The translations under genes were made by a program, and so were the position numbers. A model generated the notes under the pieces. That model was not told the DNA's origin. It made no database searches and worked only from the letters and a program-made list of their open reading frames with translations. Below, one piece after another: positions 3,674-64,000 of a DNA stretch of 64,000 nt (its first letter is position 1; each line of letters begins with the position of its first letter). Location: contig JAUCBJ010008853.1 of NCBI GenBank assembly GCA_032718475.1, forward strand, positions 3,098 to 67,097, in the 5' to 3' direction. This DNA comes from Nemertoderma westbladi. Taxonomy: Eukaryota; Animalia; Xenacoelomorpha.

Positions 3674-4894
3674 TGTTCGCGCTTTCAGACCTTTGGCAGT
3701 TTAACCCACCAAATTAAGATGTCTTCCAGATATTAAATCGGTTTTTAGTCTATGACAAGTATTTGATTCACTACACTAGTCGAAACCAATCTGTGCGCGA
3801 TCATTCACCCGCTGGATATTCCCGGGAGATTGGGTTCGACGGTTTAATTTTATTGCTATGTAAGCCTAATGTATTATTCGACTGACAGTATTATATAATC
3901 TCTGACAATATTATTCACCTTCGGGAATATTAACAGTTCCTTTAGGACGTGGCGCTTTATCTATATAAACAGAGTTATGACTTAAACTACTCACAACGAT
4001 ATGGCTTAATTATAATTCACATATATGGCGCATTCTTTAGGAATGCTTCTTTAACAGACTCACTCATACACAATGCTGCACAATACTGCACACTAATCTG
4101 CCGATCTTCACTGATTTTAGTCACATATAAAAGGAACACAGACTGACTCATGTAGGGTCTATCAAATAACATTAGATTCACTTCAAACCACTTTAACATA
4201 AGTCACAATCGTTTATCTGTAACCTTTCTCTCTTACCTTCGGTACATCAAGAATATTGGGTTTCGGGGTTATTTCTCGTTATTCCAATATAATAATTCAT
4301 CAACCATATTATGAAGAACTGACAGTAAATAGCAGTATAAAACAACAACTGAACACTGATTGTTATGAGTTTGCAATGTTTCAGCAGTCAGTATGTATGA
4401 TCAGTTAGCAGTGATTCCATGAGTTTGATCGGTATGTCAGTTAAAGGATATATGCTCTTATAATTAAACCTACTAGTGTAAGACTAAAAACTGAAAACAC
4501 GGAGGTGCCAAAAGCCGGTTCTTAGGCTCTGGGCAAAAACATAACACTGAACTACTGAGTTTCTGTATATACCTTCAACACAGAGACAACAAACGCTCTG
4601 ATTGGTCAACCTGAACAACGAGAGAACAGAGAAACAAAGAAACGTCGACGTGGCAATATCAGCTGCTAGCCGTCGTCATGGTAGCGACACTGTTTTCAAG
4701 AGTATCGAGCTTTTACGTCACGGAATTACGGATTATGTCCTCTAAAGTACAAATACAGAAGAAATAGCTTTTATGTCCGCTAAAACACCAGTACAGCAAG
4801 GACACGGCCTTTTTATGCCTGGTAAACCAACTACAGAGTATTTTACGGGAAAAATAAGGAAAAATAACCGGACAATTCAGCAAAAGCTTTTACA
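3674..4894 (-). repeat. 3' LTR of element 1
   Basis: Near-identical to 14208-15428; only two substitutions spotted by eye. Confidence 0.97.
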
Positions 4895-4902: not shown

Positions 4903-5039
4903 AGAAAATGGGATTTTCAGTCTATAAAATATAAAAATCACAGTTTCTAAAACATAAAGATACTCTAAACAGTTAGTCTTTCTTACGCAGACGGCGTTTA
5001 CGCAGTTTTTTGAGGCTAGCAAGAGTCTTTTTCTCTTTG

Positions 5040-13915: not shown

Positions 13916-14207
13916 TCTGCACAATCTGATCAGGTTTACACGCCTTCTGTTCAATACTGGCCTACAAATAAATAAAGCTGACAGAAATAGGCCTAAGTAA
14001 AAATCCCAATAAAAACCAGGCGTCCCCGATTAATTATTAAGACCTACCGGCATATATAATCAAATCGAATAATACTGCTGTACTTATACGGAAGTACCGG
14101 TTAGGACAGTTAGGCCTACTGACCTACAGATGGACCGTTCAGGTTTACCGGTTGACCGGTACTTTCAACTTTATTGCTTACCGCAATAAAGAAGCTATAT
14201 CCTTTAA

Positions 14208-15428
14208 TGTTGGCGCTTTCAGACCTTTGGCAGTTTAACCCACCAAATTAAGATGTCTTCCAGATATTAAATCGGTTTTTAGTCTATGACAAGTATTTGA
14301 TTCACTACACTAGTCGAAACCAATCTGTGCGCGATCATTCACCCGCTGGATATTCCCGGGAGATTGGGTTCGACGGTTTAATTTTATTGCTATGTAAGCC
14401 TAATGTATTATTCGACTGACAGTATTATATAATCTCTGACAATATTATTCACCTTCGGGAATATTAACAGTTCCTTTAGGACGTGGCGCTTTATCTATAT
14501 AAACAGAGTTATGACTTAAACTACTCACAACGATATGGCTTAATTATAATTCACATATATGGCGCATTCTTTAGGAATGCTTCTTTAACAGACTCACTCA
14601 TACACAATGCTGCACAATACTGCACACTAATCTGCCGATCTTCACTGATTTTAGTCACATATAAAAGGAACACAGACTGACTCATGTAGGGTCTATCAAA
14701 TAACATTAGATTCACTTCAAACCACTTTAACATAAGTCACAATCGTTTATCTGTAACCTTTCTCTCTTACCTTCGGTACATCAAGAATATTGGGTTTCGG
14801 GGTTATTTCTCGTTATTCCAATATAATAATTCATCAACCATATTATGAAGAACTGACAGTAAATAGCAGTATAAAACAACAACTGAACACTGATTGTTAT
14901 GAGATTGCAATGTTTCAGCAGTCAGTATGTATGATCAGTTAGCAGTGATTCCATGAGTTTGATCGGTATGTCAGTTAAAGGATATATGCTCTTATAATTA
15001 AACCTACTAGTGTAAGACTAAAAACTGAAAACACGGAGGTGCCAAAAGCCGGTTCTTAGGCTCTGGGCAAAAACATAACACTGAACTACTGAGTTTCTGT
15101 ATATACCTTCAACACAGAGACAACAAACGCTCTGATTGGTCAACCTGAACAACGAGAGAACAGAGAAACAAAGAAACGTCGACGTGGCAATATCAGCTGC
15201 TAGCCGTCGTCATGGTAGCGACACTGTTTTCAAGAGTATCGAGCTTTTACGTCACGGAATTACGGATTATGTCCTCTAAAGTACAAATACAGAAGAAATA
15301 GCTTTTATGTCCGCTAAAACACCAGTACAGCAAGGACACGGCCTTTTTATGCCTGGTAAACCAACTACAGAGTATTTTACGGGAAAAATAAGGAAAAATA
15401 ACCGGACAATTCAGCAAAAGCTTTTACA
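14208..15428 (-). repeat. 5' LTR of element 1
   Basis: Duplicate of 3674-4894. Candidate minus-strand CCAAT (~15135), TATA-like (~15100) and AATAAA (~14385). Confidence 0.97.
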
Positions 15429-20560: not shown

Positions 20561-20791
20561 CACAGCATTCTTGTAATTTAAAAGCATGCCAATTGTCAAT
20601 TATCTTATCCGTATGTGCCTTGTTCTTTTGTTACTGTAACTATAATTTGCTCCTCTCCTTTCTGTTACAGCGACCTCATCGTTTATTATAATTGAGTCGC
20701 TTGAAATTTATAATAGAGAAGAGCGTGATATACATTAAACTACTGCCACCTGTATTTAATTTATCGATTAATACTTAATTAAGATTTCATA

Positions 20792-28900: not shown

Positions 28901-30130
28901 AATATACGTAGGCAATCTGAGTCTCTTGGTAGCATTCGGACCTGGTGGAACATCGCTTTGATGCCGCATGTGAAGGCTATTTTGTTTTCTCGGAACCTGA
29001 TCAATACGCCGATCAGTGTACTGTAGATGTTGGGTCCGGTGTAAAGTTGGCTGTTTAAGGATTCGCCATGATACATAGCCACAGCGTCATTCACTACCCG
29101 GATTTTACCGCCCTTCCGGGCTTCCATCACGTAGTGGGTCGGGAGATAATATGTCCGTCTAGTCCCCTGCAGTTCATTCAGGGGCACCATTTCCGCCAAT
29201 CCATCTTCTAAATAACCTTTAACCACATTATTATATTTCTCTTTTATCTCAGGTAGCTCGTTTAACCGGCGTAAGATACCTTTGAGCCTCCTTAGGGCCA
29301 TGCTGGCGTTATTCGCCATCGGTCTATCTGGGTCTTTCCAAAGCATGGGCGAGCACCAATGTCCGTCTTTGAATGTTGCCTGGTCGAGAACATCCATACA
29401 ATATTGATCTTCTTCGGACGGATTCTCGTCCTTCTCAGCGAATTCTAGAGTCTCTAAGTTGAAATATTTTGTCATTTCCCGTTGGGTTTTTTCAGTTTCC
29501 AAGAATAAATCCTCGTCCAGGTCGGTTGCTGAACAGTAACCCACAGATATTGCGTTCTCTTTGATCTGGCATTTTGGAAGATATCTATATGTGTCGGTAG
29601 TCTCTTCTTTGATGCCACAGAGTGTCCATCCCATGATGGTGCGCTCCGCATAGAAACCATCATCCGGTTTTACAGATCGGGCTATGTCTCCGGTCGGTAT
29701 ATGTAATTCCGGTGTATCGAGCCCGATTAATAGCGTGATTCTGTTCAAGTCCAACGGTGGGCATCGTAGATCCACATCTTCCCGATCTAACTGTATGAGG
29801 GGTGCGTATTCGGATGATTGTCGGAATCGCACTCTGAGATCGGTATGCACCAGAGCATTTTTAATCGTTAGTTTGACCGCTTCGTAGCCTTTCATAACTC
29901 CTTCCATCCTGAGTTGTACCTCCCCGGACTCCACTTCTTTATGGTCGGTTATAGTCTGTATGGGCCGCCTGCAGGGTTCATAGTCTAGGCCTAGTTGTTC
30001 GAGAAAATCCCTGTCTGTGATCGTTCCGTCCGACCCATTGTCCTGTCCAGGAACGCGAGTGTTGTTAAGGATTTTCCGACCCCTTGGATTCTTACCAGGA
30101 TCACTTTGGTAAAGACCATATAACGGCGGT
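25998..30130 (-). pseudogene. pol: pol of element 2 (protease, RT, RNase H, integrase)
   Basis: AFLD protease; IKAMFHQV and FYVDDG RT; HTFSDAS RNase H; GVDCFGP, YSDNGTNF, GVWEKL integrase; YQRPIQRLCLLE tail. Many frameshifts. Confidence 0.92.
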
Positions 30131-39050: not shown

Positions 39051-39065
39051 GGGCGGGAATACAGA

Positions 39066-39908
39066 ATGTACAGTAGACATAATGTACAGTAGATATAATG
39101 TACAGTAGACATAATGTACAGTAGACATAATGTACAGTAGACATAATGTACGTACAGTAGAAATAATGTACAGTAGACATAATGTACAATAGACATAATG
39201 TACAGTAGACATAATGTACAGTAGACATAATGTACAGTAGACATAATGTACATTAGACATAATGTACGTACAGTAGAGATAATGTACAGTAGACATTATG
39301 TACAGTAGACATAATGTACAGTAGACATAATGTACAGTAGACATAATGTACAGTAGACATAATGTACAGTAGACATAATGTACAGTATAAATAATGTACA
39401 GTATACATAATGTACAGTGAACATAATGCACAGTAGACATAATGTACAGTAGACATAATGTACAGTAGACATAATGTACAGTAGACATAATGTACAGTAG
39501 ACATAATGTACAGTAGACATAATGTACAGTAGAAATAATGTACAGTATACATAATGTACAGTAGACATAATGTACAGTAGACATAATGTACAGTATACAT
39601 AAAGTACAGTATACATAATGTACAGTAGACATAATGTACAGTAGACATAATGTACAGTCGACATAATGTGCAGTAGACATAATGTACAGTAGACATAATG
39701 TACAGTAGACATAATGTACAGTAGACATAATGTACAGTAGAAATAATGTACAGTAGACATAATGTACAGTAGACATAATGTACAGTATACATAATGTACA
39801 TTAGACATAATGTACAGTATACATAATGTACAGTAGACATAATGTACAGTAGACATAATGTACAGTAGACATAATGTACAGTAGACATAATGTACAGTAG
39901 AAATAATT
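39066..39908. repeat. 16-bp satellite (GACATAATGTACAGTA)n, left arm
   Basis: About 50 highly homogeneous units. Confidence 0.98.
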
Positions 39909-42012: not shown

Positions 42013-43632
42013 GACATAATGTACAGTAGACATAATGTACAGTAGACATAATGTACAGTAGACATAATGTACAGTATACATAATGTACAGTAGACATAAT
42101 GTACAGTAGACATAATGTACAGTATACATAATGTACAGTAGACATAATGTACAGGAGACATAATGTACAGTAGACATAATGTACAGTAGACATAATGTAC
42201 AGTAGACATAATGTACAGTAGACATAATGTACAGTATACATAATGTACAGTAGAAATAATGTACAGTAGACATAATGTACAGTAGACATAATGTACAGTA
42301 GAAATAATGTACAGTAGAAATAATGTACAGTAGACATAATGTACAGTAGACATAATGTACAGTAGACATAATGTACAGTAGACATAATGTACAGTAGACA
42401 TAATGTACAGTATACATAATGTACAGTAGACATAATGTACAGTATACATAATGTACAGTAGACATAATGTACAGTATACATAATGTACAGTAGACATAAT
42501 ATACAGTAGACATAATGTACAGTAGACATAATGTACAGTAGACATAATGTACAGTAGAAATAATGTACAGTAGAGATAATGTACAGTAGACATAATGTAC
42601 AGTAGACATAATGTACAGTAGACATAATGTACAGTCGACATAATGTACATTATACATAATGTACAGTAGAAGTAATGTACAGTAGACATAATGTACAGTA
42701 GACATAATGTACAGTATACATAATGTACAGTATACATAATGTACAGTATACATAATGTACAGTATACATAATGTACAGTAGACATAATGTACAGTAGACA
42801 TAATGTACAGTAGACATAATGTACAGTAGAAATAATGTACAGTAGAGATAATGTACAGTAGACATAATGTACAGTAGACATAATGTACAGTAGACATAAT
42901 GTACAGTAGACATAATGTACAGTATACATAATGTACAGTAGACATAATGTACAGTATACATAATGTACAGTAGAAATAATGTACAGTAGACATAATGTAC
43001 AGTAGACATAATGTACAGTAGACATAATGTACAGTAGACATAATGTACAGTAGACATAATGTACAGTATACATAATGTACAGTAGACATAATGTACAGTA
43101 TACATAATGTACAGTAGACATAATGTACAGTAGACATAATGTACAGTAGACATAATGTACAGTAGACATAATGTACAGTAGAAATAATGTACAGTAGAGA
43201 TAATGTACAGTAGACATAATGTACAGTAGACATAATGTACAGTAGACATAATGTACAGTAGACATAATGTACAGTATACATAATGTACAGTAGACATAAT
43301 GTACAGTATACATAATGTACAGTAGACATAATGTACAGTAGACATAATGTACAGTAGACATAATGTACAGTAGACATAATGTACAGTAGACATAATGTAC
43401 AGAAGACATAATATACAGTAGACATAATGTACAGTAGACATAATGTACAGTAGACATAATGTACAGTAGACATAATGTACCGTAGACATAATGTACAGTA
43501 GAAATAATGTACAGTAGACATAATGTACAGTAGACATAATGTACAGTAGACATAATGTACAGTAGAAATAATGTACAGTAGAAATAATGTACAGTAGATA
43601 TAATGTACAGTAGAGATAATGTACAGTAGAAA
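42013..43632. repeat. 16-bp satellite (GACATAATGTACAGTA)n, right arm
   Basis: About 100 units directly after the poly(A) tail. Confidence 0.98.
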
Positions 43633-45699: not shown

Positions 45700-48013
45700 A
45701 TTACACCTGTTCAAACTACTGCTGATCCTTTCGCCCAAATCCTTTGCTAGCTGCCTCTGTTATCCTCCTCGGAATCTTCCAAAGAGCGCGCTGTCCAGGT
45801 GTACACCTTTGTAGTTGTCTTTCGTTTGGCCCCACTTCTATCTGATGGTTGCCCTTCAGTATTTGCAACCTCAGTAATCAACCAGCCATCAACAAGTTCT
45901 ATATCTTTGTACTTCATCGCCTTCAAATCGTTCAAGTTATTAGCCAATATGCCGACATCGTTGAAGGTATGTGTGAGTTCCCTGTACATGGCCAAGAGAC
46001 GATTGCCGTATCGAACTGTCTTCCAGTGGAAGAAATCTACGACTGGCTCAACATCATTAGCTAAAAACAGAATAACAACTATCAGCGCAGAAAACCCAAA
46101 ACAATTTTTCACCACCCGCAGATGATAAACTAATTTATCGATCAGTGGGTGGTGAAAAATATGTTGTTGTTTAAAGTTTCAAAAAGTTAAACATGTAAAA
46201 ATTCAAGAATATAGTGAGTGATCTGACATCCATTTCAATTATTCAGATGAAATGTTAAGATTGATTACTAGGATATATTATGGAATCCCTCCAGATTCCT
46301 TCATCAGATGTATAACCAATTCTATAAAAACTAAATATTATTATATATTTTTATGTATAAGCGAAAAACATGACGTGTGGTGATAAATTTAATTGACTAA
46401 CCTCACACAAAGGTTCCATTATCACTTGCATCGCCAGTAAATCGTATACATAATCTTGTCCGAGTATTTCATACTACAGTGTCAATATCCTTGTTTGGAT
46501 ACATCTGGTGAAACGTTGTTGCATAAATTTTAAATCCCTTTGTAATTTTCCTCCACTGATCTATGTCTGAGCTTGTAAATCGCTGTGTTGCGTATGGTAC
46601 AACTACCACAACTTGCTCTTCCATTTCTTTGGCAACTGCTTCCATATGAGCAAAGCCTTTACCCCGTGAGAACAGTTTGTTGAACTTGTTGCTGCTTCCA
46701 ATAAATGATAGGAAATGATCCTTGCTGCCAATGAGGCCATCACGAACATCCTGCACAACCAAATCGAGAAAATGAGCTAAATCCCAAATGACAGGTTCTA
46801 GCTCGTCCATGCGTCACTGCCACGACCTGTGCGTTATTGAATTCTGGTTTTAAATGCCTCACTCTGGTATTGCCCATCAGCAGTTGTGCCCATGTAGTAC
46901 TGTATTTCCTCCAAATCTAACCCTAAATTGTTTTCCAAACAAATTCATAAATAGATCAGCTAAGTCTTTTGACCCACCTGCAGTTAATAATACAGCTGAT
47001 GGAAGAAGCGAGGTAACTGGATCAATGGTGTCTTCATCGCCTTCATCCTCATCTGACTCAACTTCGTCTATTAATAGATATCTGTCATGCGAGTGGTAAA
47101 CCAATGGAGCTGCAACTGGAATGGAGCACCGCCTACCATCGACTAAAAAGGCAATTAAAATTGTAAAATAACTCGAGTCTCCTTCATTATACACTTTAGA
47201 GCCAACTGTAAAATTATGTTTAGCTGTTTGCGCCCATGACAAATATTACCAACATTAACTCCACAGGAAGATGGAAGAGAAATTAATGTTTCATAGTGAC
47301 AAGAAGCTGCTTTGACGCGCACATCTGGAAATGCAGCACGGACCAAATTCTGCATGATTGAATGCGAGAGATCACTTCGTTGTTTCTCCTTTGGAACGCT
47401 CTTCTGTAGCAGTGAAATGTTGCCTGCCATGATGCAAACTACTTATGCCAAGCAAATGACAACGTAAAAGTGAATTTAATCGCCTCCACGTACTTGTCTT
47501 TCCGCCTATAGCATCTCCTGTTTCCAACTTACCAATCCACATTCCACCTACTGGTGTACCTCTTGTCATCGGGGATAAATTCTGTGCACTTGTCGTTGAG
47601 TTAATTTCTGCTGGGTCTTTCCCATGGAAAAATGAAAAGCACGTCTCACAGCATATAACACTTTCTCCTGTTTCATTGGAAATGAAAAATTATATATCCG
47701 TAGCCCTAGAAACTTCCACAATGTTGCTCAGTTTAATCCACTTGTCTAGATCGGTAATGGTTGACCCAATAGAGTCCGATATTGGATGTTCTTCTGTGGT
47801 GCTCGGAGACTGCTCCCGCAAAATTGGAAAAGTGGCAGACATTTTCTCAATTAGAATTTCAACCAGTTGGTCGATATTTGTTTGGGAATCACAAATTGCT
47901 GAAGGTAACTTTCGATCCTGAGCAGTAAATCGAGATATTGTTGTCTGTACTAATTCAACAGGTTCAACAGGTGGGGGTGGGGGTGACTCGAAAAGCACAT
48001 CATCCCGAATCAT
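45700..48013 (-). pseudogene. hAT-like transposase pseudogene with N-terminal TTF-type zinc finger
   Basis: CCETC...WRRL..CHL..LH, HYETLI, DGQY, WDLAHFLDL, TQRF motifs across frameshifted ORFs. Confidence 0.6.
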
Positions 48014-48067
48014 GCATGCCCGAGGTCGACTTCAGTAACAGACACTTCGTCAGGTTCAATGTCAATG

Positions 48068-48128
48068 CCAGATATGTTTGATATGGACCCAGATATGTTT
48101 GATATGGACCCAGATATGTTTGATATGG
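48068..48128. repeat. 21-bp tandem repeat (CCAGATATGTTTGATATGGAC) x3
   Basis: Direct observation. Confidence 0.9.
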
Positions 48129-48279
48129 GTGACGTTGCTTGTGGTGATGAAAAAATAATAACCCCTGTCTTTGATTCCTTTTGTTTTACGCGATCATTTC
48201 GTTCTAAAACAATAAATATATTATAAGCCTGATAACAATGCGGTCTTCTTTATTAGATTCCTATTAGATTACTAGATGA

Positions 48280-48861
48280 TAGTGGCAATGGTGGTATTGT
48301 TCTATTGATGAATCCCACTGCACATGCAGCATTGGACAAATTAGACCAAATCTCCAACCGCATCATCCGTTGCCACTTCTCATGTTCTGGAAGACTGGCT
48401 AAGAAGTTTCCTAAGGTGGTTCTGATTGTGTGCTACTCTCCAACTAGTGTTGCCCCTGTAGAGGAGGTGGAAAAGTTCTACCACAATCTACAAGCAGCTA
48501 CTGATGGAGTGGATCAGCATGCATTCTTAACATTCCTTGGAGACTTTAATGCAAGTCTGCATCAATCACCTACATCGCCCTGGGTCTATAGCAATAGTGC
48601 TAACCGAAATTCCGTCCATCTTCAGGATTTTATCTCTGGAAATGGATTGTTTTCGGCTGGAACCCAGTTCAAGAAGCGAACTGGAAAGCTATGGACTCAT
48701 AGTGGACCCAGTGGTCACAAGTCCCAGATAGACCATATTCTGTTTCGTAGGAAATACAGGAGCTCTATGCAAGACTGTAGTGCATTTACACTTCGACCCT
48801 TCTCCAGTGATCACCGCCTTATTGTGGCCAAGGTAAGACTTAGTCTGCGTGTTAGCAGAAC
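48280..48861 (+). pseudogene. RTE-type LINE APE endonuclease, interrupted by element 3
   Basis: ISNRII, VCYSPT, LGDFNA, WTH, QIDHIL, SDHRLIVAKVRLSLR; the frame is cut by the LTR at 48862. Confidence 0.9.
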
Positions 48862-49442
48862 TGTGACGGGATCCGAGAATCCCGATTTATCCGGTGGTTA
48901 TCTTATCTACGCGTCCCCGCCGTGTGTGTGTGAAAAAGAGTTCTTGAGTTGTTGACTGATCGGTATGTATAAATATAGGGTATAATACAATCGAATAAAG
49001 TGTAACACAGTTGATTGATGATAACTAAAGTGTACCGATAAAATAGCTGAAAGATGGTGGTGGCAGTAGACGGTGATAAGAGTTCCCGTTCTGCCCTAAC
49101 TAACTGACTAACTAAAGTGAATGAAATGACACAGCAACTGGTAATATATTGCACTGGTTGGCCGTATTACATTACTCAGTGGATGCCTGCCCCCCATTGG
49201 CTAATAACCCAATTCTCGCCCTCCCATCTCTCTGGGAGTGTTTCCCCCTGCTGCTATCACTATCTCCCTCCCGGAGGTGTAACCTCTGACCCCCGCTGTG
49301 TGTGTTCCCTTGGGGTTTGTCGCCCCGTTTATTGGGGTGATACGAGGTTGATTGGCAATCAACCTCGTACTCCCAATATTGCTTAAAGCTCCTGTTTGGC
49401 CAACTCTGTGTGGGGTGGTTAGCGGAATTGAATACGCTAACA
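48862..49442 (-). repeat. 3' LTR of element 3 (581 bp)
   Basis: TGTGAC...GCTAACA; PPT GGGGGGAG (minus, 49443-49450); candidate CCAAT (~49198), TATA-like (~49145) and Inr. Confidence 0.9.
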
Positions 49443-49730
49443 CTCCCCCCATGCTATCTTCCCGGTGAGAAGATAGCATCCACCTCTAGTGCGCTACAAT
49501 TCCGCTGGATCCTGATCTACTATCGGGTGTGGGGTGGAATTATTTTTTCCGGAGCCGGCTTTCCAGGCCGCTCCCTATGGGTATGATATCGCTACCCTGT
49601 TTTCCTGGCGTCCCGTGTCGGGCCGATCGTGCGCTTCTCTCACACGATTTTTGTTTCCCCAAAACCTTCGCCACTCTAGCTCCACTCTACTCTCACCCTG
49701 ACTCTCCTCTACTTCTCTTCACTCCCTCTC
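49443..49730 (-). repeat. PPT plus 3' UTR block, copy 1
   Basis: Near-identical to 50269-50555. Confidence 0.9.
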
Positions 49731-49789
49731 TTCACTCTTCACTCTTTATTTTATCACGACTTTTAATTCTTTCTTCGTGATCATTGTGG

Positions 49790-50268
49790 AATGCTGTAAA
49801 GAGTTCTGGTGTTATTGATTCTCCGATATGTATAATGTGAGATATATATAAGGGTATAAGGATATAGTATAAAATGGATACGGTATAAGTAATATCTAAT
49901 AATAATGGTGGTAGGCGAGGATGGTCTTAGAAGTCTCCGCTCTACCCTAGCTAACCGACTAACACAATGAGATAACTGAAATAACTGATTACTGTCAACT
50001 GGTTATATTGCACGGGTTGGCCTTGTTACTGTACCTAGCCGGTGCCTCCCTCCCATTGGCTAATATCCCTGTTGGCGCCCTTTGGAGTGTTTCCCCTCAC
50101 TCCTGCTATTCTCCCTCGGTCAGGGGTTTGGCCCCTGACCCTTATTGTGTGTTCCTCCTTCCCATTTTATTGGGGTGGCACGAGATTGGGTATCCAACCT
50201 CGTGGCCCCCAATATTGCTTAACGGCTTACTTTATGGGTTCGTGTTAGCGGAATTGGATAAGCTAACA
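49790..50268 (-). repeat. Internal, diverged, U5-truncated second LTR of element 3
   Basis: Colinear with ~48930-49442 but clearly diverged; ends GCTAACA with its own PPT. Confidence 0.85.
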
Positions 50269-51468
50269 CTCCCCCCCATGCTATCTTCCCGGTGAGATGA
50301 TAGCATCCTCCTAAAGTGCGCTACAATTCCGCTGGATCCCGATCTAGCATCGGGTGTGGGGTGGAACTATTTTCTCTCGGAGCCGGCTTTCCAGGCCGCT
50401 CCCTATGGGTATGATATCACTACCCTGTTTTCCTGGCGTCCCGTGTCGGGCCGATCGTGCGCTTCTCTCACACGATTTTTGTTTCCCCAAAACCTTCGCC
50501 ACTCTAGCTCCACTCTACTCTCACCCTGACTCTCCTCTACTTCTCTTCACTCCTGCTCTAACCCTCGGACCTCCTTGTCCCTCACTCTGCCTCTTACTCC
50601 TCCCCCCCCACACTTGAATTGCACCCGCACTCTCTTCGTGCTATCACTCGACCCCTATCTCAACCACTCACTCCTGGCGAGCCTCACCCCCCTCCTGTGC
50701 CGTCGCACTCAAGAAGTGTGAAGTTGTCCAGCATCTCGTTTGTCATAGTCAATTGTTCCCCAGTCCCAGTAGCTAATTGGAAAAAGGTTGTATGACTATA
50801 GTACTTACTTTGATTGTATTTTCTTGCTAAACTAATGATTGTTTCGAACGTACATACTAATTGCACTTTTCAATTATTTAAATTATTTGAATTTGTACTT
50901 AGGAGTTCGCACGTCTCACGTGGTGCCTTCCAGGCATACCACATCGAAGTCTTAGTTCGTTCCACCTGTCTTTGGGAACCACCTCAACTCTTTCCCTCTG
51001 TCGTCCTCCTCCCTTGGTCGTTTCCTGGCCGCTGCCGCTCCTTTGGTCTTATCTCCCTTCAGGCTCCTGACCCTCGCCGTCACCTCTCTACTAATCCCGG
51101 TCGTTGACTCCTTGGGCGCTGGTGTTATTAGCTCCCGGTATCGCTTCGCGGGTGGCCCCTCCGAGTGGCCCTGTTGTTTCCCCCTGGTGGCGTCCCATGG
51201 GATCACTTTCATCGCCCGCGGCACATGCTCCGCCAAGAAATCTCTGAACTCCTGTCCACCTGTCCAAATACCTCTGCGTATTTATCACCACGGCATACGA
51301 CGCCGCCGTCGCTACCTCCTGGTAGGTAAACGGAAGTCTCCGTTTGATAATCTCCAAGTGGGCCTCCTGGTTGATATTGAAGAAGCCCCACCGGAACTCC
51401 TGGGCCTTCATACGTTGCCGAGTCATGGCCCCGAAGTTGGCCCACTCCTCAAAGATCCTAAACTTATC

Positions 51469-53499
51469 TTAGTCATCCATCCAGTCGCACTGGCGTCCGT
51501 AGTGCCCCCAGAAGCTGCACTTCGAACACCGGTTGTGCAACCGTGGACATGCCCCCATCCTGTGGCACGACTCGCGGCAGTAGAGACAACTAGTCCCTTT
51601 CTGGAACCGGTACAAACAGCTCCTTTCCTGGTGGGTTTGCCTCCCACAGTAATCACAGCCGAGCACCAATGTCTCCCGCCCCTCGTCGTCTTTCGTCCCA
51701 AGCGATCTCCGCGGTCTGTGGAGTCGCTGGTAAGCGAACTTCTGGACGTTAGTGTCCCTGTCCACGTCGATCTCCTCGCCCCTCCCGGGCATCGTCTCAC
51801 CGAATACTACCCGTGGTGCCGTTCCCGGTTGCTCGCCCAACCTGATGGTGCTCCCCGCGAAATCCATCGCCGGCTCCTCATGCACCCAGGCCCGCTTGCT
51901 GGGTCTATCCCAGAAGGCCCTCGCCCCACTAGCCGTCACCACCCTCCTGCTAACCCAGTCCGTGTCCGAGTGGCCGATTCTCCCGATGGGCGGCATCTCT
52001 CCAAACTCGTCATCATCCTCGTCCTCCTCTGGGAGTGGCTCCAACCCCGGTATCCCGGTGGACCCACTGTGTCCCTTCCCGCCTTGGCTCTCGCTCGTGA
52101 CTTTCCATCCTTCCAACTCCCCTAGCCTCTTTAGCGGGTGATCGCCCTCGGCGCCCGCTGGTATGGGCATCATCTCCAATCCCGATGTCGCCTGTTTCGG
52201 TGATCCCACCATCCACCCTAATTCTCGCCCTAGAGACTCCCCCGAACTCCCTGATGACGTCCATCGAAGTTCGTCTAAGGCCGCCTGTTCCTCGAAGCCG
52301 TAGCTCTGCGCTCTAGCTTCTTCCTCCCTTTCCTCTGCCTCTCTCCTTTCATGTCTAGCGATTTCTTCCAATCGCTTCGCTTCTCGTCTATCCGCCTCTA
52401 GCTGCTCCCATCTCTGATATGGCGTATCTACCTCCCCGTCTACCAGATGTCGGCAGTTATAGTACACCGACTCGCCCTTCAGCCCTGGGAGGTCTACTAG
52501 ACCCTCGAAAGCCGTCTTGAAGGCTCTTCTGTAGCTTCGGGGTGATCCCGATAGCAGGAATGCTGTTGGTTCCCTCTCGATAACCACGGTCATGAATAGG
52601 TTAAGCGAACCCATCATTATCCAGTCCTCCTGTAGGATATATCGCTTCTGATATACCTTTATCGCTCCTCTCTGGAATTGATACACCTCTTGTTTCCCTG
52701 GCCTTTTCCCTGGCGAGTTCGCCAACTCCACTCCGTACTCCTCTCTGAACTTACTCCAGTCCATAGGTTTGTGACACACGAGCCCCATTAGCTGGCCCAT
52801 CGCCACCGCTCCACAATGGCGTGAGTTCTCCACTAGTCCCAACCCGTCTGGTGTTGTCATAGCCACGTAGACCGTCTGCATGTCCAGAAGGTTGGGGGTG
52901 TCCGGACTGATGATTCTCTCCGCATCGTCGCAAATCGCCGATCCCACTTTCGTCCTCGACTTCTCTCTCACTAGGGTTTGCACTGCCTTCGGCAACCGGT
53001 TCAACTTCGGCCCGTCCTTCTTCCCATACGTCCCTAGATCGAATAGGAATATATCTCCATTTGGCGCGCCCAAATTTAGGAGTATGGTTCTGGCCGACCC
53101 CGCCGATCCTCTCCTCGAACCCTCCTCGTCTTCCACGGTCCCCTCATCGTCTAGGATCATGTATCCTCCTCTGCTGACGGACTCTACGAACCTCTTCCAA
53201 TCCTTTCTCGGTAGCTCTCTTGCGTACTTCGGAATCCCGAACTTCGCTTCGTCTCCTTTCACCACATAGTGGAAATGCTCAAAGATCACGTTGTGCAGCG
53301 ACGGCGTCCCATAGGTCCCGACCAGCCGCTGTTCATGCACCTCCCTGAAATGGTCCTGTAGCGCTCGCGCCTTGTGACCTCTCTCTAACCGCTCGTAGTA
53401 TCCCCTCGTCTTCTCTTCCGGATGCCTCTCGGTGAAATCCACCAGTATCTCCTTTCCTCCTAACTCCACCTTTCTCTTTCGGACAAGCTTCCCTGCCAT
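51469..53499 (-). CDS. Accessory ORF: DEDDy-like 3'-5' exonuclease + coiled coil + triple zinc knuckle (676 aa; the frame continues past the stop to 51091)
   Basis: ExoI ILDDEG, IFLFDL, LPKAVQTLV, ExoII KVGSAICDD, LLDMQ, ExoIII QKRYILQED; C-terminal CDYC..H..C, CLYC..H..C, CSKC..GH..C. Confidence 0.8.
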   Translation of the reverse strand: MAGKLVRKRKVELGGKEILVDFTERHPEEKTRGYYERLERGHKARALQDHFREVHEQRLVGTYGTPSLHNVIFEHFHYVVKGDEAKFGIPKYARELPRKDWKRFVESVSRGGYMILDDEGTVEDEEGSRRGSAGSARTILLNLGAPNGDIFLFDLGTYGKKDGPKLNRLPKAVQTLVREKSRTKVGSAICDDAERIISPDTPNLLDMQTVYVAMTTPDGLGLVENSRHCGAVAMGQLMGLVCHKPMDWSKFREEYGVELANSPGKRPGKQEVYQFQRGAIKVYQKRYILQEDWIMMGSLNLFMTVVIEREPTAFLLSGSPRSYRRAFKTAFEGLVDLPGLKGESVYYNCRHLVDGEVDTPYQRWEQLEADRREAKRLEEIARHERREAEEREEEARAQSYGFEEQAALDELRWTSSGSSGESLGRELGWMVGSPKQATSGLEMMPIPAGAEGDHPLKRLGELEGWKVTSESQGGKGHSGSTGIPGLEPLPEEDEDDDEFGEMPPIGRIGHSDTDWVSRRVVTASGARAFWDRPSKRAWVHEEPAMDFAGSTIRLGEQPGTAPRVVFGETMPGRGEEIDVDRDTNVQKFAYQRLHRPRRSLGTKDDEGRETLVLGCDYCGRQTHQERSCLYRFQKGTSCLYCRESCHRMGACPRLHNRCSKCSFWGHYGRQCDWMDD

Positions 53500-53974
53500 C
53501 TCTAACTCTCCTCAATCGCTCACCTGTAAGGTGGTGCCTTGCCAAGGCGCAGTACAGATGAGTGATAAAGTTAGGATGGTCTGTACAGTTCGACAATGGC
53601 CTATCTCTTACTTAACTTGAGTTTTCGCCTAATTTTCCCTACTTAATTTCTAAAACTGCTAAATTGTACCCTAAATTGTAATTTTGTCCGCTACTTTAAT
53701 TATGTTCCAGAATATTTTTCCCTACTGTTACCATAATTTGTTTAATTTCTACCTTTTATTTTTATTTTTAATCTAATTCAATCCTACTACTGTGTTACTA
53801 CTTCTGCCAATGGATTATTTTACTTTATAATCCACACTCTGGCCTATTTTGTGGGCTTGTGCAGTACAACAGTATGCGTCGTGTGGCCTACACGATTTAT
53901 CCAGCTGTACTCACGTGCCCCCCTCTCGCTACTCACTACTAACTAATATCTATATTATATATATACCCTTCTAC

Positions 53975-54812: not shown

Positions 54813-57800
54813 CTAAGGTGCTCCCTCTAGTAGGCAGCACTTCCCTACAGCCCTCCTGTAGGTCTTCCTATCTTTCGCTCCTATCTTACCACCTATCCGC
54901 ACTTCTACCGATCGGACTCTTCCGTCCTCGCCGGAGTAAGTGCCCACAACTCTCGCCAACCGCCATTGGTTGTTGATGATGGTATCGTCCGTGACGATCA
55001 CCAGATCACCCTCCTTTAGCTCTCTATTCGTATCCCTCCACTTGCTTCTCCTATGGAGCGTGGGTAGATATTCCTCGACCCACCTCCTCCAGTACTCTGC
55101 GCTTATTGCCTTAGCGACTTTCCAACTCTGTCGGGAGTGTATATCGTCTGGGTCTACACCCCACATGTCGATGGTCGCCGGCCTCTCCATTAGAAAGTGA
55201 CTGGGCGTCAGCACATCTAATGACTCTGGGTCATCATTTTCTGGATATAGCGGTCTGCTATTAATGATACCCTCACATTTTGCTAGTACCGTCCTTAGTA
55301 CGTCCTCGGTAACCATGTGGGTGTTCATCAACTTCGTCATCAGATGCTTGGAACTACCCACGAGTCTCTCGACGCATCCTAGAGTATGCGGAGCATACGG
55401 CGTCCTCCTCTCCCACTTCACCTGTTGTCTTCTCATGGCTGCCCTGACTTCCTCCCCTTCCAGGATATCCAAGGCCGCTGCCATCCCATTCTCTGCCCCC
55501 ACAAAGTTGGTTCCGTTATCGGAGTATATTACTGCGATCGTCCCACCTTTGCGGTCTCTGAACCTTTCTAGGGCATTAATGAATGCCGATGCGGTTGCAT
55601 CTTGGGTGAGTTCTATCCCTACCGCTCGCGTGTTGTTACATACGAAGATAATACCGTAGCGTTTCTCCGTGTGTCGCATCACCTTAATCTTTATCGGCCC
55701 GAACATATCCACACCGCAGTGCGTGAATGGCGGGTCATGTTGTCTCACTCTGCTGGCCGGTAGTGGCACCATCTCCTGTATGGCCCGCTCCTTCTTCGTT
55801 CGTCGGCAGGTCTGGCACTGCCCCACTACTGCCTCTACCTTCTTCCTTAACTGTTTGACCCAAAAGGTCCTTCGTATCTCCGTGAGGGTTCGGTTGGTGC
55901 CCCCATGCAATATCGACTTATGGGAGTCCCAGATGATCTGGTGGACTATCGGCGATCCATTAGGGATGATGATGGGCTTTGGCGGAATGATAATACTGTT
56001 GTTACTCAACACCCTAGAGTTCATTACTAAGATCCTGTCATCATTGAGTTGTGGCGACAGCGCGATCAGCTCACTGTCCCGTCGGAGATGCTGTTGTCTA
56101 CCGACGCATTCCACCTTGTCGCTGTAATTCTTTCTCTGTTCATAGCGGATAACGGCTTTGGCCGCTCCCTCCAGATCGATGGTTGTTCTAATTTTTACGT
56201 CTTTGCCGACTCCCTTGAGGAAATCCCCGAAGGCTCTGCAGTACGCCACTAACTTCTTGGTCTTGTACCAACTAGAGCTGTAGCTAAGGAGTTTGTCCGT
56301 CGGGTTATCGCACAGTTCTTCCGATTTTAGTTGCACGTCCCTTATCTCCCTCACCATCTGGCTATATATTTCCTCACCTTCTGAATCTCCTCCCTCTTCC
56401 TCTAACGCTACTTGCTCTGCGCCCGGGTCCACCTTTCTCATCGGCGGCCAGGCTGTCTTATCATTTAGTAATTGCGGCCCATGCTGCCACAATACTTCCT
56501 TCTTAAAGAAAGTGTGGCATGCCACGCCCCTCGATAACAAGTCTGCTGGGTTCTCGTCCATTGGGCAGTAGTGCCACCTTTCTAACTCTGTGGTCGCCCT
56601 TATTTCGTCCACCCTGTTTGCGACGAATATAGGGTATCTCGTCCTTTCGTTATGTAGCCAACCAAGCACTACCATGGAATCCGTCCAGTAGTGTGTTTCC
56701 ACTATGTTGGGAATAGCGCCCATCAAGTAGGCTGTGGCCCTAACTCCTAACCTCGCAGCTGTCAACTCGAGTTTCGGAACTGATGCTGAATCTGGTGGCG
56801 TCGACTTCGCTTTGCTGAATGCGAGTCTGGGCTTGTGAGCCCCCTCTCATTGTACTAAGTAGAGTGCCGCTCCGTATGCCTCTAATGATGCATCGGAAAA
56901 CATGTGTAGATCCAGATTCATCATGTCCCCATCCGGGAAATACACGCGTGGCATGCTGTATGTTCCCATCTGCTCTAAACTCTCTGTCCACTTACACCAC
57001 TGCTTGCTGATCTCTTCCGGTACCTCTGTGTCCCACTCGTCCTTTAGTTTGTATACTCTCTTGAGTATCTGTTTCCCCGTGACTAATAATGGGGATGCTA
57101 GGCCTAGGGGATCGTATATCCTTGCTATGTACGAAACATAGCCCCTCTTTGTGTGGATGTCTGCGCCCTCCTGATTCAACTGGTATTTCAACTTGTCTGT
57201 CTCTCGGTTCCACACGATCCCTAGTGCCTTCTGTTGGGACTCTACTCTCTTGTTCGCCATGTCCTGTCCCTTGGCTGTCGTGGGATTATCCATGGTCGAC
57301 TCTGGCCTCCTGTCCTCTATGGCTTTCATGAACTCTTGCGAGCTGGATTGGAACTTGGTTAGGTTGAACCCGGATCCTTTTAGGATGTCGCGAACCTCGC
57401 ACCCCGTATCCAGTAGTTCCTTAACCGTATTTCCAGACTCCATCCCGTCGTCTACATAGAAGCCGCGTCGAATCATATCAACGGCTTTGTCGCTGAATTT
57501 ATCTTCCTTCCCTTCTACTGTGTCTCTTACGGCCACAGTCGTCGTAAATGAAGACGACTTGGCTCCCATATTCTGTACTACCATCTTATACATCGGTATG
57601 GTCGACGGTTCCTCGTCGCCGTGTACCATAGAACGTCGCTGTCGCTATCCTCTTCCGTTACACGGACTTGGTTGAACATGCCTTCGATGTCGCAGGTGAA
57701 GGCGTGTTTCCCGTTCCTGAATCTAAGTAAGACCTCTATCCCTGAGTTGTAGATATTGGGACCCTCCAGCAGATAATCGTTTAGGCATTTGCCGTTGGTC

Positions 57801-58850
57801 TTAGCTGATGCGTCAACTACCATCCGCAGTTTACCTTTCTTCGGGTCTAGAGCCACGTGGAGTGGCAGGTAATAGGTCCTGTCCGTGTTTGGTTCGTCGA
57901 CCGGTAGCTCTACGGCCCATCCTTTCTCGACATACTTCCTAATCGTCTTATGAATGTACTCATTCTTTTCGGGGCTCCGTTTTAGCGTCTGCTTCAACTT
58001 ACGAAGCCTCGTGAGTACCATTCCTCTGTTGTCGGGTAGCGGTAGCTTCGGTAGCTTCCATACCATTCCTATGGTATACCGCCCCTCGTCGCACCTCATC
58101 GACTCCTTTACGCTCTGTAGAGCCTGTTTATCTTCTACCGAGGTTCCGACCCCGGTCTCTTTTAATCCCTCAAAATCCTGCCTGAGCAGTCTCCTGAGCT
58201 GCTCCTCCGCTCCCTCATCTCCCATCTCTCGCATAGTTCCCGCGAACATGCAGCCTGATGTCTCCGACATCCTAAATGGTATCTTGCTCTTAATTGGGCC
58301 GCTCAGCGTCCACCCGAATGGTGTTAAAATCGCCACCGGGTCACACTGCCTGTCTTCGCCGAAGACCGTTTGCATTCTCTCGTGGGCCGTCGGGCAGTCC
58401 ATTCCTACTATAATGGATACCTTCCTAACGTCCACCTCTGGGATTGAGAAGTCGATACTGTCCAGGAATTTATATTGTTCGACCTCGATGTTGGTTGGCC
58501 GCCTGGCGTTGATATTTATCGACTCTATCACCTGGATGGGGTCGATGGTCGCCCCATAGTCGCATCCTGGTGCTATCGCTGCTATCGCGCACCGTCCGGT
58601 CCTCATCTCCAGGACCTCATCTTTGCTGGAGATGGTTGTTACCGCCATTCTACTTGGCCTCGTTCTCAATCCTATCTCTTCGGCCACCCAGTTCTCGACT
58701 AATGTGAAGGCTGCTCCACTGTCGACCAGCATCAGTGTGGTCACTGATCGATTGCCTTCCCCGATCACTCGCACTGGTACTACCCCAAGTAGTACCGTTC
58801 CTCTCTTCTTTGCCCCTACGGTGCTCGTTGCCATCGTCTGACCTTTACTT
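54813..58850 (-). pseudogene. pol: pol of element 3 (PR-RT-RH-IN), a few frameshifts
   Basis: MLVDSGA, CDIEGMFNQV, FYVDDG, HMFSDAS, WTDS, HGG..CQTC, GVDMFGP, SDNGTNF, GCVERLV. Breaks near 57640 and 56850. Confidence 0.95.
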
Positions 58851-60352
58851 TGACCGAACTTAATTGGCGTTTCCTTGCATTGGTTGGCTCTATGTCCACT
58901 CATCACACATCGTGAGCAGATTTCATTTCTTCTCGCGTATTCTACCTGATCTTCCCTGGGTAGCGCTTGCCAGTACCTGCAGTTCATGGTCTGATGAAGT
59001 GCATTTGTGATGTAATTGGCATTTGCTCTTTGGGTTGTAGCCGTCCTTATAAAGTGCGTTGCATATCGCACTTATGTTTGTACCAAAGTCCCTACTATTC
59101 TTATTGTTTGGGTTCGGCCTACTGGGCGTGCTGGGGTTATGTTTATTTGTGTTGTTATTTTTCCCCTGTCCGCTCCATGATGTGGTCTTACCCCCGGCTA
59201 CTTGTGGACTAGCAGTCCCCTGCGTTGCTGCGTACGGCAGTGACTGTCTGAGCTTTGGCAATGCGTTCGACGCGTTGTGTTCTGGTTTCGGTCTGTGGTA
59301 ATCGGTCTTTGGTCCCTTTCCCAGGCTATCCTCGCTATAGACTGGGTCTGTTATTAATTCGGCTTCATAGTTCAAGAAGCTCGACATTTCTTCTAAACCC
59401 GGTTCCGCACCCTTCTTATCTCGAGTGGTGAAAGCGATTTTCCTCCACTTATTACGCATCCAGATCGGCAGTGCCTGTGCTATCGTGGTGATGTTGTTAG
59501 ACGCGTTGAGTTCGTATGGTGCGTCTAGCGTCTTTAGTACGATTAGCGCCTTCTCAACCTTGTTCGCAAACGTCTTTATGCTAACGGGATTATCCTGTAG
59601 GCCACCCGATGTTATACCTCTCAGGGTCTGCCGGATGATCTTGGCCGGGTGCCCGTACTCCCTGTCTAATGCCCGCCATGCTGTCGTGAAGCCGCCCTCG
59701 ATACCCTGGTATTGCCTCACGATATCGTATGCTGGGCATCCTGTATATACTTGTAGATATTTTAGGCACTCCGCCTGCGTCAAGTTCTTTGTTAGTATTT
59801 CGTTACTATACATGCGCCGAAACTGTAGGTATTCTTCCGGCCTACTTCCATCGAATTTGAATGGTTCCACGGGTGGTAACTCGATCCTAGTTTTTAATGC
59901 ATCGATTAATGTAGCCATTCCCATCGCTTGCGCTTCCAATGGGTTCGATGGATGCCATATAGGTTCTCCCATTGGGTGCGGTCCGTTCGTCCTGTCTGAC
60001 GCTTTTCTTTGACTTATATCATTGGGGGTAGCGGCCCCCTGCATATTTTAGTGTCGCACGATCTATTCTTATCCCTATTGGGGTATATTGTTGATATTGT
60101 GATGGGGGAATGTCACCCTGCCCCCCCCCCCCCCCCCACCGGTATGTTTGATACTGGGGTTGATGTTAATATATTGGGGCCCATACACCTATCCACAATA
60201 ATTCTCCCCTCCCCTGGGTATATGTTATGTCCTTGCATGCTGTAGTCATACTGCTGTGCTGGTACCGGTATAGGCCTATCCACTTCTGGCCTACCTGCCG
60301 GTATATACTCCGCGACTTCCGGGTTTAGTCCCGTCGTCCGCGCTATCCTATT

Positions 60353-61064
60353 GCTTACATTATCTCTCCCAGCATGGCCTATGGTATGTGGGGCGAGACA
60401 CGCAGTCGGCGAGCCTTGGCATACGGTTCATATAGGGCAAATGGGGCATGTCCATCTGTCTGTCTGTCTGGCTGTCTGTCTGTCTGGTAAATGTTTGAAC
60501 GCGAATTTCTCTGCATCGCTGGTTCGGAATTGAACCAAACTTAGTAGGTAAGTAGTATAGAAAAAGTTTAGAAAGTTTGTAAAGTTTGGTGAAAAATCAT
60601 GCAGTCTGACGTCAGCTACGACAGATTATGTGGTTTTTAGAAAATGTTAAATTTCTCGGGAAGGCCTCATTTTCCTGAGCTTAAATTTTGGTGGCCTGTA
60701 GAGAATCATGAAGTCTATCTTTTACGAAATTGAAAAGTTAAGACATTTAATTGGGGATCCGCTAGAGACTCAGAAGTAATGACATAGGCCTACCGGTACG
60801 GTACTGCTGTACAGTGCTGCACTGGTAAGTACGAAATTGCAGAATAACAATTTGACACCACCTAGCGGATTAACATATGATTGTATATCGAATGAATACA
60901 TTTATAGCATGGGATATTGGGTCCAAACTAGACATGCCCCATTTGCTCTATATGAACCGTATGCCAAGGCTTGCCGACTACGTGCTGCGCGAAGTCCCCA
61001 CGAACGTGTGCAGTAAGGCCTACAGTATGTCCTGCAGTCTGTATGTGTCGCTCGGGATCAAAGT
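60353..61064. mobile_element. Helentron/DINE-1-like non-autonomous insertion in gag of element 3
   Basis: Removing it restores RRLNRIA at a TT site. ~49-bp inverted repeats (~60404-60452 and ~60931-60979) and a (CTGT)n microsatellite after the first repeat. Confidence 0.65.
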
Positions 61065-61985: not shown

Positions 61986-63814
61986 GCCGGGCTGCCTGCG
62001 CTTGCCGCGTTTATATTAATAGCACCATTACCAGTATTATCTGTTAAATCAATTAAATCCTCCAAATCAATTAAATTATTTTGCACGCCTAAATTAGAAA
62101 CGGGATTATTTTGTTCGTTCGAAATAAGATTATTTGAATTATTTTGCGTAATTATATTATTTGAATTATTTTGTAAATTCAGATTTAGATTATTTGAATT
62201 ATTCCCTACGTTTATATTATGAATGGGTCGGATTTAAATTACTACCATCGGACGAAATGTTATCTCCTGCAATGAAAGTTTGATTAGGGTTATCCACTAC
62301 GGTACTATTAATATTAACGTCCTCTACTGTATTATTATTATTACCCCCCCCCCCCCCCCCCCCCGCCCGCACGGTCACACCAGTCCTGGGTCTGTCGTGC
62401 GGTCCCTGTAAGTGGGGCATTAATAAACGTTTCCCTAACTCCTGGCTCCTCGTAAATACTCGAGCCAGCCTCGCTCTCTGACAGCCCCATCTGCGCCAGT
62501 TCCAGTCTGCGCCTCTGCTTGACTTGATATTGCATAAGCCCCCTCAACCGGGCATGCATATTATCTCGCACACGCTTCCCCGTTGCCTCTCTCTCCCAGT
62601 CCTCCCGCATACTCTGCTCGGCAATTCCGCCTCTCTCGCAACTCTCTCCAGTCGTCTCGCCTCGCGCTCTTTTCGCTCACTCTGCTCTCTCGCCTCACGC
62701 TCTTCACGTCTATTCTGCTCTCTCGCCTCACGCTCTTCTTGCTCCTTCCTTTCTATCCTCCCTATTTCCTCGCACTCCTTAAAACTTCTCGCGACCTTTT
62801 CGGCTCTCTCTCTGTTCTCTCTAGCCAGTTCTTTCTCCTTCTCTATTAACGCACTCTCTTCCTCTAACTGTCTCTCTAATTCTCTCTGGTCTAGCGCCGC
62901 CAGATCGAGCTGGCACGCCAGATCTATTTCCATCACCCGTCTTACTTTCGTGGAGGATGTAGCAGACTTATCGGTCGCGATGGACTCCCTCCGCCTTCCC
63001 GTCCTACTAACTTTCCCCCGCCTCCCGGAATTTTCTCCGACCGACGAGACCGAATCCTCGGGGCTAACCTCGGATTCGCCCTCCTGCGGTCCCCTCCAAC
63101 CCACTAATTTTATTCCCCGGGCATCGACTAAGTATGGCCCTATGTACACTACGCCAGGCTCCATACCCCTACATTCCCATAGTTCAAACAGTTCGCTGGC
63201 AACCCCTCTCGCTCTCTCATCGGCTAGTTCTCCCTGCCCAAAGCGCACTAAGTAATCAAAATGTTTGTTCGACTCACCTAGCCGCTTCTCTAGCTTCACC
63301 TGGTCTATCTTGGCCCCTCCTTTGGCTTCTCTTAGCTGCTTCCGGGTCGCGGCGTAGGCTCGTCGGAGCCGGTCGCTGACCCCGACGTCCTCGTCGCCGA
63401 CGTCTCCTCTATCCCTCCGTGTCCGGCGTCGTACCGGCGGCCCCACCGTCGCCGTTCCGGTGGGCCGTCCGTCGCCCTCGGCCTGTGGCTGGCCGGCGAC
63501 ATCGGCACGTCGACCGCCGCTCGTGTGTCGACTCGTCTCTCCCCTCTCTCGACTCGCTCTCTCGTTGTAGACGGCCCCCCTCCGTTTGGATTGCCGGATC
63601 GCCTATGGTCGACGAATCCGGCGTCGTGGGTCGGTACCGTCGCGTCGCGGCCTCGCGGATCGTTAGGTCGCTGTCCGGGGTCCGCGGCGGTGTCGTCTCT
63701 CCTTCTCGACTCATCTTTTGTCTTTACTTGAGTCGGTGGCTGGCAGTCAGTTCAGGCAATTGATCTTGTCACTACGGATCTTATCACTTAGGGCAGCTGC
63801 TTGGTTCTTATCAC

Positions 63815-64000
63815 TGTGACGGGATCCGAGAATCCCGATTTATCCAGTGGTTATCTTATCTACGCGTCCCCGCCGTGTGTGTGTGAAAAAGAGTTCTGGA
63901 GTTGTTGACTGATCGGTATGTATAAATATAGGGTATAATACAATCGAATAAAGTGTAACACAGTTGATTGATGATAACTAAAGTGTACCGGTAAATAGCT
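63815..64000 (-). repeat. 5' LTR of element 3 (partial)
   Basis: Matches 48862-49048. Confidence 0.95.

Follow-up and report, generated by a model that had tools for sequence, protein, structure and literature searches.

Element 3 and its surroundings

The analysed window, by which we mean the whole stretch of 64,000 nucleotides, carries several BEL/Pao retrotransposons on its minus strand. Element 3, at its right-hand end, consists of the following parts.

48862..49442, minus strand: 3' LTR, 581 nt, TG...CA (start from a purine tract followed by TG, motif alone; end from LTR comparison and empty-site contigs)
49443..49450, minus strand: polypurine tract preceding the 3' LTR (sequence)
51469..53511, minus strand: extra ORF of 680 aa between integrase and 3' LTR (Atlas lead, 0.93)
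54813..60047, minus strand: gag-pol in four ORF pieces with DUF1759, protease, RT/RNase H with Peptidase_A17, integrase and DUF5641 (ORF list and Pfam)
63815..64000, minus strand: final 186 nt of the 5' LTR, the remainder lying beyond the window (97.9% identity to 48862-49048)

The Pfam matches of the coding region (PF03564, 5e-10; PF05380, 2e-29; PF18701, 4e-25) identify element 3 as a BEL/Pao retrotransposon, and they follow the order of that superfamily: DUF1759, aspartyl protease, Pao peptidase, integrase zinc finger and DUF5641. The BEL/Pao label given in the initial annotation is borne out by these domains and by the PR-RT-RH-IN order. PF18701 or PF05380 is present in 120 of 120 relatives of the integrase piece among the matches listed, and the closest relatives among 394 matches share about 34% identity. 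Comparison of contigs with the window finds the family to be multi-copy and diverse in all four sequencing runs compared. The coding region is interrupted by frame changes and one stop, and this copy is therefore not intact.

Element 3 has a polypurine tract and TG...CA LTRs, with 186 nt of the 5' LTR inside the window. The two LTR copies are 97.9% identical over 189 nt and end in CA at 63815 and 48862. Contigs from the uninterrupted LINE site depart from the window directly after 48861 in three of the four runs (as loose ends in X1, X3 and X4, of which X1 and X3 are one sample). Because the LTR-copy comparison and the empty-site contigs set this boundary, the LTR end is fixed independently of the self-match described below. 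The sequence motif behind the purine tract indicates that the 3' LTR most likely starts at 49442, which makes the LTR 581 nt long and places the predicted primer end, 49073, 211 nt from the LTR end. A 2.36-kb LTR was considered and dropped in favour of this purine-tract/TG junction.

The element sits in a high-copy LINE-like element (47460-48861, plus strand), recognised by a Pfam endonuclease domain and by the empty-site contigs. Its gag region contains an inverted-repeat insertion (60399-60984, 54-nt arms, 94%), at which contigs skip about 620-650 nt. For the extra ORF at 51469-53511 (minus strand), 24 of 30 Atlas look-alikes fall in 3'-5' exonuclease sets (PF01612, 50% of members of the best such cluster; score 0.93), and Cys/His knuckles lie at its C-terminal side. 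A Pfam search and a homolog search at E 0.01 gave no match, and the single-sequence fold is unusable (pLDDT 37.8). A 3'-5' exonuclease domain in this sequence is a lead only. DEDDy ORF3s are described in bdelloid LTR elements in the accessible part of PMC5408684.

The window also holds two arrays of one 16-nt tandem unit (39061-39911 and 42012-43630, 53 and 101 copies) and, on the plus strand at 20783-22324, a C2H2 zinc-finger array ORF built of 84/168-nt repeats. Rfam and ARAGORN returned no tRNA gene or Rfam match in the 64 kb.

The leader of element 3 is complementary to its own LTR

On the minus strand the 5' LTR of element 3 ends in CA at 63815 and the leader starts with GTGATAAGA. The initial annotation had proposed that three leader words, in place of a tRNA-type site, pair with complements in the LTR. 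The sequence confirms these words and their complements. The words lie at 63806-63814, 63788-63796 and 63745-63752, and the 3' LTR holds an exact complement of each, in matching antiparallel order, at 49073-49081, 49091-49099 and 49102-49109, with 0 G:U pairs. Helices 1 and 2 are separated by a 9x9 loop, helix 1 is flush with the LTR end, and TGG is absent from leader bases 1-115 (63700-63814). The features concerned are these.

63806..63814, minus strand: primer-site position, leader 1-9, helix 1; adjoins the LTR end and is exactly complementary to LTR 49073-49081 (sequence and shuffle nulls)
63788..63796, minus strand: leader 19-27, helix 2; complement of LTR 49091-49099 (sequence; pair probability 0.89-1.0)
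63745..63752, minus strand: leader 63-70, helix 3 (weak); complement of LTR 49102-49109 (sequence; probability 0.1-0.33 in that register)
63779..63787, minus strand: second exact copy of the helix-1 9-mer, leader 28-36; predicted to be unused by the LTR arm (sequence)
about 63854..63861, minus strand: U5 copy of the GATAAGA word (7 nt of the helix-1 9-mer), predicted competitor for the primer arm in uncut RNA (sequence and fold)
49073..49109, minus strand: complementary LTR block with the arms of helices 3, 2 and 1; the predicted primer has its 3' end at 49073, 211 nt short of the LTR end (sequence of the 3' LTR)

The copies of the helix-1 word at 63779-63787 and in U5 were absent from the initial annotation, and both are able to compete for the same LTR arm. 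In the 5' LTR the same block would be expected at about 64025-64061, beyond the window end. Upstream of the block (49119..49200, minus strand) the LTR contains what we take to be promoter motifs: CCAAT at 49196-49200, a TATA-like motif at 49142-49150 and an initiator-like motif at 49119-49129.

We used dinucleotide shuffles of the 581-nt LTR to estimate how often such a match arises by chance. A flush match of at least 9 nt occurred in 78 of 20,000 shuffles, and one accompanied by any further nested 8-mer in 4 of 20,000. A flush match with a second 9-mer in near-register was seen in 0 of 20,000 shuffles of the last 310 nt of the LTR and in 0 of 8,000 of the 2.36-kb stretch. Along the element itself, a match of 9 nt is reached at 9 of the 12,490 internal positions, and these include leader positions 1, 19 and 28.

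Element 1 repeats the arrangement with different letters

A second element in the window has the same geometry, here in a true 5' LTR.

14208..15428, minus strand: element 1, complete 5' LTR, 1221 nt, block 14975-14986 (LTR-pair comparison)
14196..14207, minus strand: first 12 leader bases of element 1, without TGG; exactly complementary to 14975-14986 and abutting the LTR end (sequence)
3674..4894, minus strand: element 1, 3' LTR, 99.8% identity to the 5' LTR, block 4441-4452 (LTR-pair comparison)

The flush 12-nt match of element 1 was reached in 12 of 20,000 shuffles and at 3 of 9,283 internal positions. Its leader begins with TT and that of element 3 with GT; the gag and protease of the two elements share 24-27% identity only, and swapping leaders and LTRs between them leaves matches of only 5-6 nt. 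A Tf1-type site, complementary to the element's own LTR and adjoining the LTR end, is present in both elements, each with letters of its own.

Element 1 (3674-15428, minus strand) is young, to judge from its 99.8% identical LTRs and the 5-nt target duplication on both flanks. It is nevertheless non-autonomous: its gag and protease run into a short remnant of the RNase H/integrase side, and no RT match is present. The otherwise unalike LTRs of elements 1 and 3 have one 12-nt word in common (about 14960-14975 and 48955-48967), which lies directly downstream of the block in element 1 and about 105 nt after it in element 3. A third BEL/Pao element, element 2 (about 26000-34700, minus strand), is broken and groups with element 3 on long branches; an LTR pair was looked for there and none was found.

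Folding predictions separate the three helices

Folds were computed in six sequence windows, with a piece of the 3' LTR as one strand and the 5' region as the other. The three-helix picture of the initial annotation survives in part. Helix 2 is predicted to be stable (pair probability 0.89-1.0), whereas helix 3 is weak (0.1-0.33) and a shifted register is preferred to it. Helix 1 is absent from the uncut two-strand fold (probability 0.0 in 6 of 6 windows) but forms once the RNA ends at 49073, when that strand pairs with leader 1-9 at a predicted probability of 0.91-0.97. In uncut RNA the primer arm is instead predicted to pair with the U5 copy of GATAAGA, a fold better by about 4 kcal/mol (-76.6 versus -72.4). 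The bases 3' of the primer are predicted to pair with the same U5 tract in both the element's own LTR and the sister LTR described below (-14.8 and -15.8 kcal/mol). The primer-site helix of element 1 formed in two of six predicted fold windows. The fold predictions cut both ways for self-priming: as modelled, the U5 copy could act as a switch, could be a flaw peculiar to this copy of element 3, or could indicate that helix 1 goes unused.

These predictions bear on the possibility that the LTR-leader pairing is real and selected but serves as a structural or regulatory fold, in packaging, dimerisation or a translation switch, while something else is the primer. That the most stable predicted helix is helix 2 rather than the primer-site helix fits such a role, as do the three GATAAGA copies, which permit alternative folds. 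It leaves unexplained, however, why the match starts at leader base 1 in element 3, in element 1 and, among the surveyed loci below, in L046 and in those with matches of 11-14 nt; nor does it account for G:U-free matches that replace the TGG site, which tRNA-type elements without such a match have kept. We regard a purely structural role as unlikely.

A sister LTR and related copies

about 49800..50268, minus strand: sister-subfamily LTR, truncated and having a purine tract of its own (sequence; contigs join it to the common U5)

This truncated LTR and its upstream region (49760-50600, minus strand) stand in tandem before the 3' LTR of element 3, an arrangement that is likely to be recombinant. 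Contig joints at 48936-49799 and 63883-49798 link the sister LTR to the common U5. Its block departs from that of element 3 at 4 of 9 positions in helix 1, 2 of 9 in helix 2 and 1 of 8 in helix 3, with the terminal AC unchanged. Of the three changes in helices 2 and 3, two would produce G:U pairs with the leader of element 3. Compensating leader changes are predicted for the sister copies; contigs compared with 63725-63860 yielded no variant rows. Similarity among related copies covers leader 1-27 and breaks down beyond it: of the 28 pieces listed (184 more exist), 16 start at 63776-63791 and none reaches the helix-3 site. One contig type (X1 and X3, one sample) is without the helix-2 site, with a joint at 63762-63808.

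The sister block also bears on whether the match in element 3 is a by-product, either of GATA-factor-like words on both strands or of the LTR block having been duplicated locally, in inverted form, into the leader. Helix 1 does hold a WGATAR word, of which there are 10 forward and 5 reverse copies in 48862-51225 and two in the leader. Yet no such word occurs in helix 2, in the 12-mer of element 1 or in the sister block, helices 1 and 2 enclose a non-complementary loop, which a simple duplication would not be expected to leave, and the flush position recurs in other families. We consider this origin very unlikely.

Leader-LTR matches in other BEL/Pao families

We extended the analysis to 97 loci taken from public contigs with a 36-sequence integrase alignment, the metagenome part being the best 80 of 522; the viral contigs gave one locus from 27 candidates, which was left out. 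LTR-leader regions could be tested in 31 of the 97 loci (loci showing a repeat or an overlap at their termini, or in which both an LTR and a leader were visible). A match was allowed to be split by a GT..AG intron, and was scored at the CA|GT site against block shuffles. Unanchored scanning of long regions had yielded many chance 9-11-mers, and of the two approaches only the anchored test with its null is counted.

Nine of the 31 regions, from loci that include the best 80 of 522, have a self-match of 11-14 nt, against 0.03 expected, in every case across a predicted GT..AG intron in the LTR (L026, L038, L052, L053, L073, L078, L085, L089 and L092). The six TGG-type regions, by contrast, reach 3-5 nt and the 16 others 3-8 nt. 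The count of nine is to be read with the following in mind: L073 and L092 entered the set after showing the match, L026 and L092 share one site sequence, the LTR ends of the split-match loci were located by the match itself, and the introns are predictions. A further five loci (L008, L017, L043, L072 and L079) show 10-13 nt only with a relaxed filter for which there is no null. Where the LTR end is set by a repeat boundary (11 loci), eight are TGG-type with a flush self-match of at most 5 nt, L046 has 9 nt flush, L024 has 11 nt at offset 3, and L017 has none at that boundary. A 10-nt match at the tRNA-type locus L068 was rejected, its position being outside the LTR. The leaders of the self-matching loci differ in sequence yet begin with GT, like that of element 3. 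Folded freely from exon 2 to the leader, 5 of 10 survey loci gave the same predicted fold as with the primer helix forced.

A primer made by splicing was rejected for elements 3 and 1, whose best split matches are 6 and 9 nt against contiguous matches of 9 and 12. Neither element has a better split than contiguous match, and both therefore represent an unspliced form.

Chance has a negligible probability as the source of the match in element 3. Matches of 9-11 nt do occur somewhere in kilobase-long regions, and 6 of the 12,490 internal positions of element 3 outside the leader reach 9 nt, but two elements in one window match at leader base 1, each at the low shuffle frequency given above, and element 1 together with the survey count largely refutes coincidence.

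The survey likewise bears on priming by a host tRNA half or another small host RNA, with the LTR match secondary. Half-tRNA priming exists and is known for some Ty1/copia lineages (accessible text of PMC6317226). The lack of TGG excludes a mature tRNA 3' end for element 3, however, and primer-site sequences vary by family, each matching its own LTR, which one conserved host RNA would not produce. We judge a small host RNA to be a quite improbable primer.

Among other observations from the survey, L018 (60-130) and L019 (100-170) have TGG-like starts before gag, with undefined LTR ends; both lie inside the main self-matching clade and may be tRNA-primed. L081-L094 are BEL/Pao elements, some of them complete, in contigs filed as bacterial genomes, a filing that is likely to reflect host contamination.

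Element 3 lies outside the main self-matching group

In a tree of RT-RH-IN sequences most self-matching loci form one group, and element 3 falls outside it, in a set with TGG-type loci and L078. Forcing element 3 into the main group was rejected in an alignment of 38 rows (LG+G4, p-AU 0.01) and in one of 28 rows (mixture model, p-AU 0.027), both drawn from 63 rows with unlabelled ones mostly left out and with primer-type labels that we assigned ourselves; the tested group was named after the trees had been inspected, and element 3 is on a long branch. The tree is unrooted and was built without the named BEL/Pao references (BEL, Tas, Pao, Sinbad, Suzu, Dan and Flow), and in it gain and loss are indistinguishable.

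A self-priming reading of element 3

These comparisons suggest that in element 3, as in Tf1, the primer for minus-strand synthesis is probably not a tRNA but the leading part of the element's own RNA. The initial annotation had put forward the same reading, which gains from the replicate in element 1, the unrelated BEL/Pao families and the tRNA-type negative controls, while the specific three-helix picture comes out weaker. Self-priming is favoured because the argument is positional, in that a primer ending at 49073 would extend directly into the terminal CA, as minus-strand synthesis needs, and because an exact, flush and family-specific match replaces the tRNA site rather than joining it. 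Against it, helix 1 is 9 bp, compared with 11 nt in Tf1, and the predicted primer is about 50 nt long rather than 11. Also against it are the predicted uncut fold, in which the U5 copy displaces helix 1, the weakness of helix 3, the helix of element 1 forming in only two of six fold windows, the TT at the start of that element's leader, the contig type without the helix-2 site, and the many survey LTR ends that were placed by the match.

In the proposed mechanism, transcription would start about 45-55 nt before the block end, and helix 2 would clamp the 5' end of the RNA onto the leader. A cut after 49073, which by analogy with Tf1 could be made by the element's RNase H, would leave an RNA that ends in AC with a free 3'-OH. 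Seated on leader 1-9, this end would be elongated directly into the CA that closes the LTR. The primer would later be copied in plus-strand synthesis, so that site and primer would remain exact complements. Since the prediction names one base, 49073, as the primer end, the claim is sharply testable.

A broader reading, which we put forward tentatively and hold to be rather doubtful, joins these observations. Self-priming would be a common and unrecognised mode across BEL/Pao, either ancestral or arisen more than once, and one large clade would make its primer by splicing an LTR intron. The lineage of element 3 would use an unspliced, clamped 5' end, with the U5 copy as a decoy that keeps the primer off its site until the RNA is cut and possibly with the exonuclease-like ORF trimming the 3' end.

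If many animal BEL/Pao elements do self-prime, theirs would be a third LTR superfamily with this mode, beside Tf1-like gypsy and TAR copia elements, and the frequency with which tRNA priming is gained and lost could be tested on the tree. At their primer sites such elements would presumably give tRNA fragments nothing to target, and they would escape annotation tools that require a tRNA site.

Comparison with known systems

The general description of BEL/Pao elements as tRNA-primed, from which the initial annotation had started, agrees with the ICTV profile of Belpaoviridae, in which an 18-nt primer site is complementary to the 3' terminus of tRNA-Arg or tRNA-Gly and BEL/Pao replication is called poorly understood (PMC8742986). 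For the BEL/Pao element Achilles, the accessible part of PMC4580426 gives a tRNA-Tyr site. The LTRs, the gag-PR-RT-RH-IN order and polypurine tract of element 3 and the 5-nt target duplication of element 1 agree with Belpaoviridae, but both elements differ from the description in having no tRNA site; for element 3, no site complementary to a tRNA 3' end was found by the absence of TGG from leader 1-115. No report of BEL/Pao self-priming was found in the literature searched, which comprised largely the accessible portions of open papers, exclusive of supplements and Repbase, and an earlier mention is possible; PMC3118150 and PMC554778 contain no passage with 'PBS' or 'tRNA'.

Self-priming is given for Tf1/sushi, Tj1, Tcn1 and TAR copia elements (accessible parts of PMC6317226, PMC4600332, PMC7175516 and PMC3601003). 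Element 3 is like Tf1/Tf2 of Schizosaccharomyces pombe, Tj1 of S. japonicus and the Tf1/sushi and Tcn1 groups, all of them Ty3/gypsy, in having, by its 5' LTR, a site complementary to its own LTR-derived RNA and not to a tRNA (as far as the accessible text of PMC7175516, PMC4600332 and PMC6317226 describes those elements). In Tf1 the RNA's first 11 bases anneal to the site and RNase H makes its cut between bases 11 and 12 (PMC7175516, accessible part), and on about half of the cDNA the site is present as a single-stranded DNA copy (PMC11042837, likewise in part). By analogy, such copying would keep site and primer matched in element 3 too. The Tf1 primer is the first 11 nt of the RNA, whereas the match in element 3 is 9 nt, lies a predicted 50 nt or so into the RNA, and comes with an accessory helix and a U5 competitor; and self-priming has been shown experimentally for Tf1, whereas element 3 is known from its sequence alone. 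Membership of element 3 in Tf1/sushi was rejected on its BEL/Pao domains and the lack of a chromodomain match by Pfam, and the two are alike in mechanism at most. In the TAR lineage of plant Ty1/copia (Houba, Osr-1), self-priming outside the Tf1 group is also predicted from sequence (PMC6317226, accessible text), although these are copia elements of plants and not BEL/Pao.

The splice-junction self-matching BEL/Pao families from public contigs share with element 3 a leader GT after the LTR CA and a match to the own LTR. Their match is split by a predicted GT..AG intron, whereas it is contiguous in elements 3 and 1, and element 3 stands outside their main clade. Taken together, the feature of element 3 is real and the comparative signature is strong; the feature would be a variant of a known self-priming mechanism in a superfamily not described as using it.
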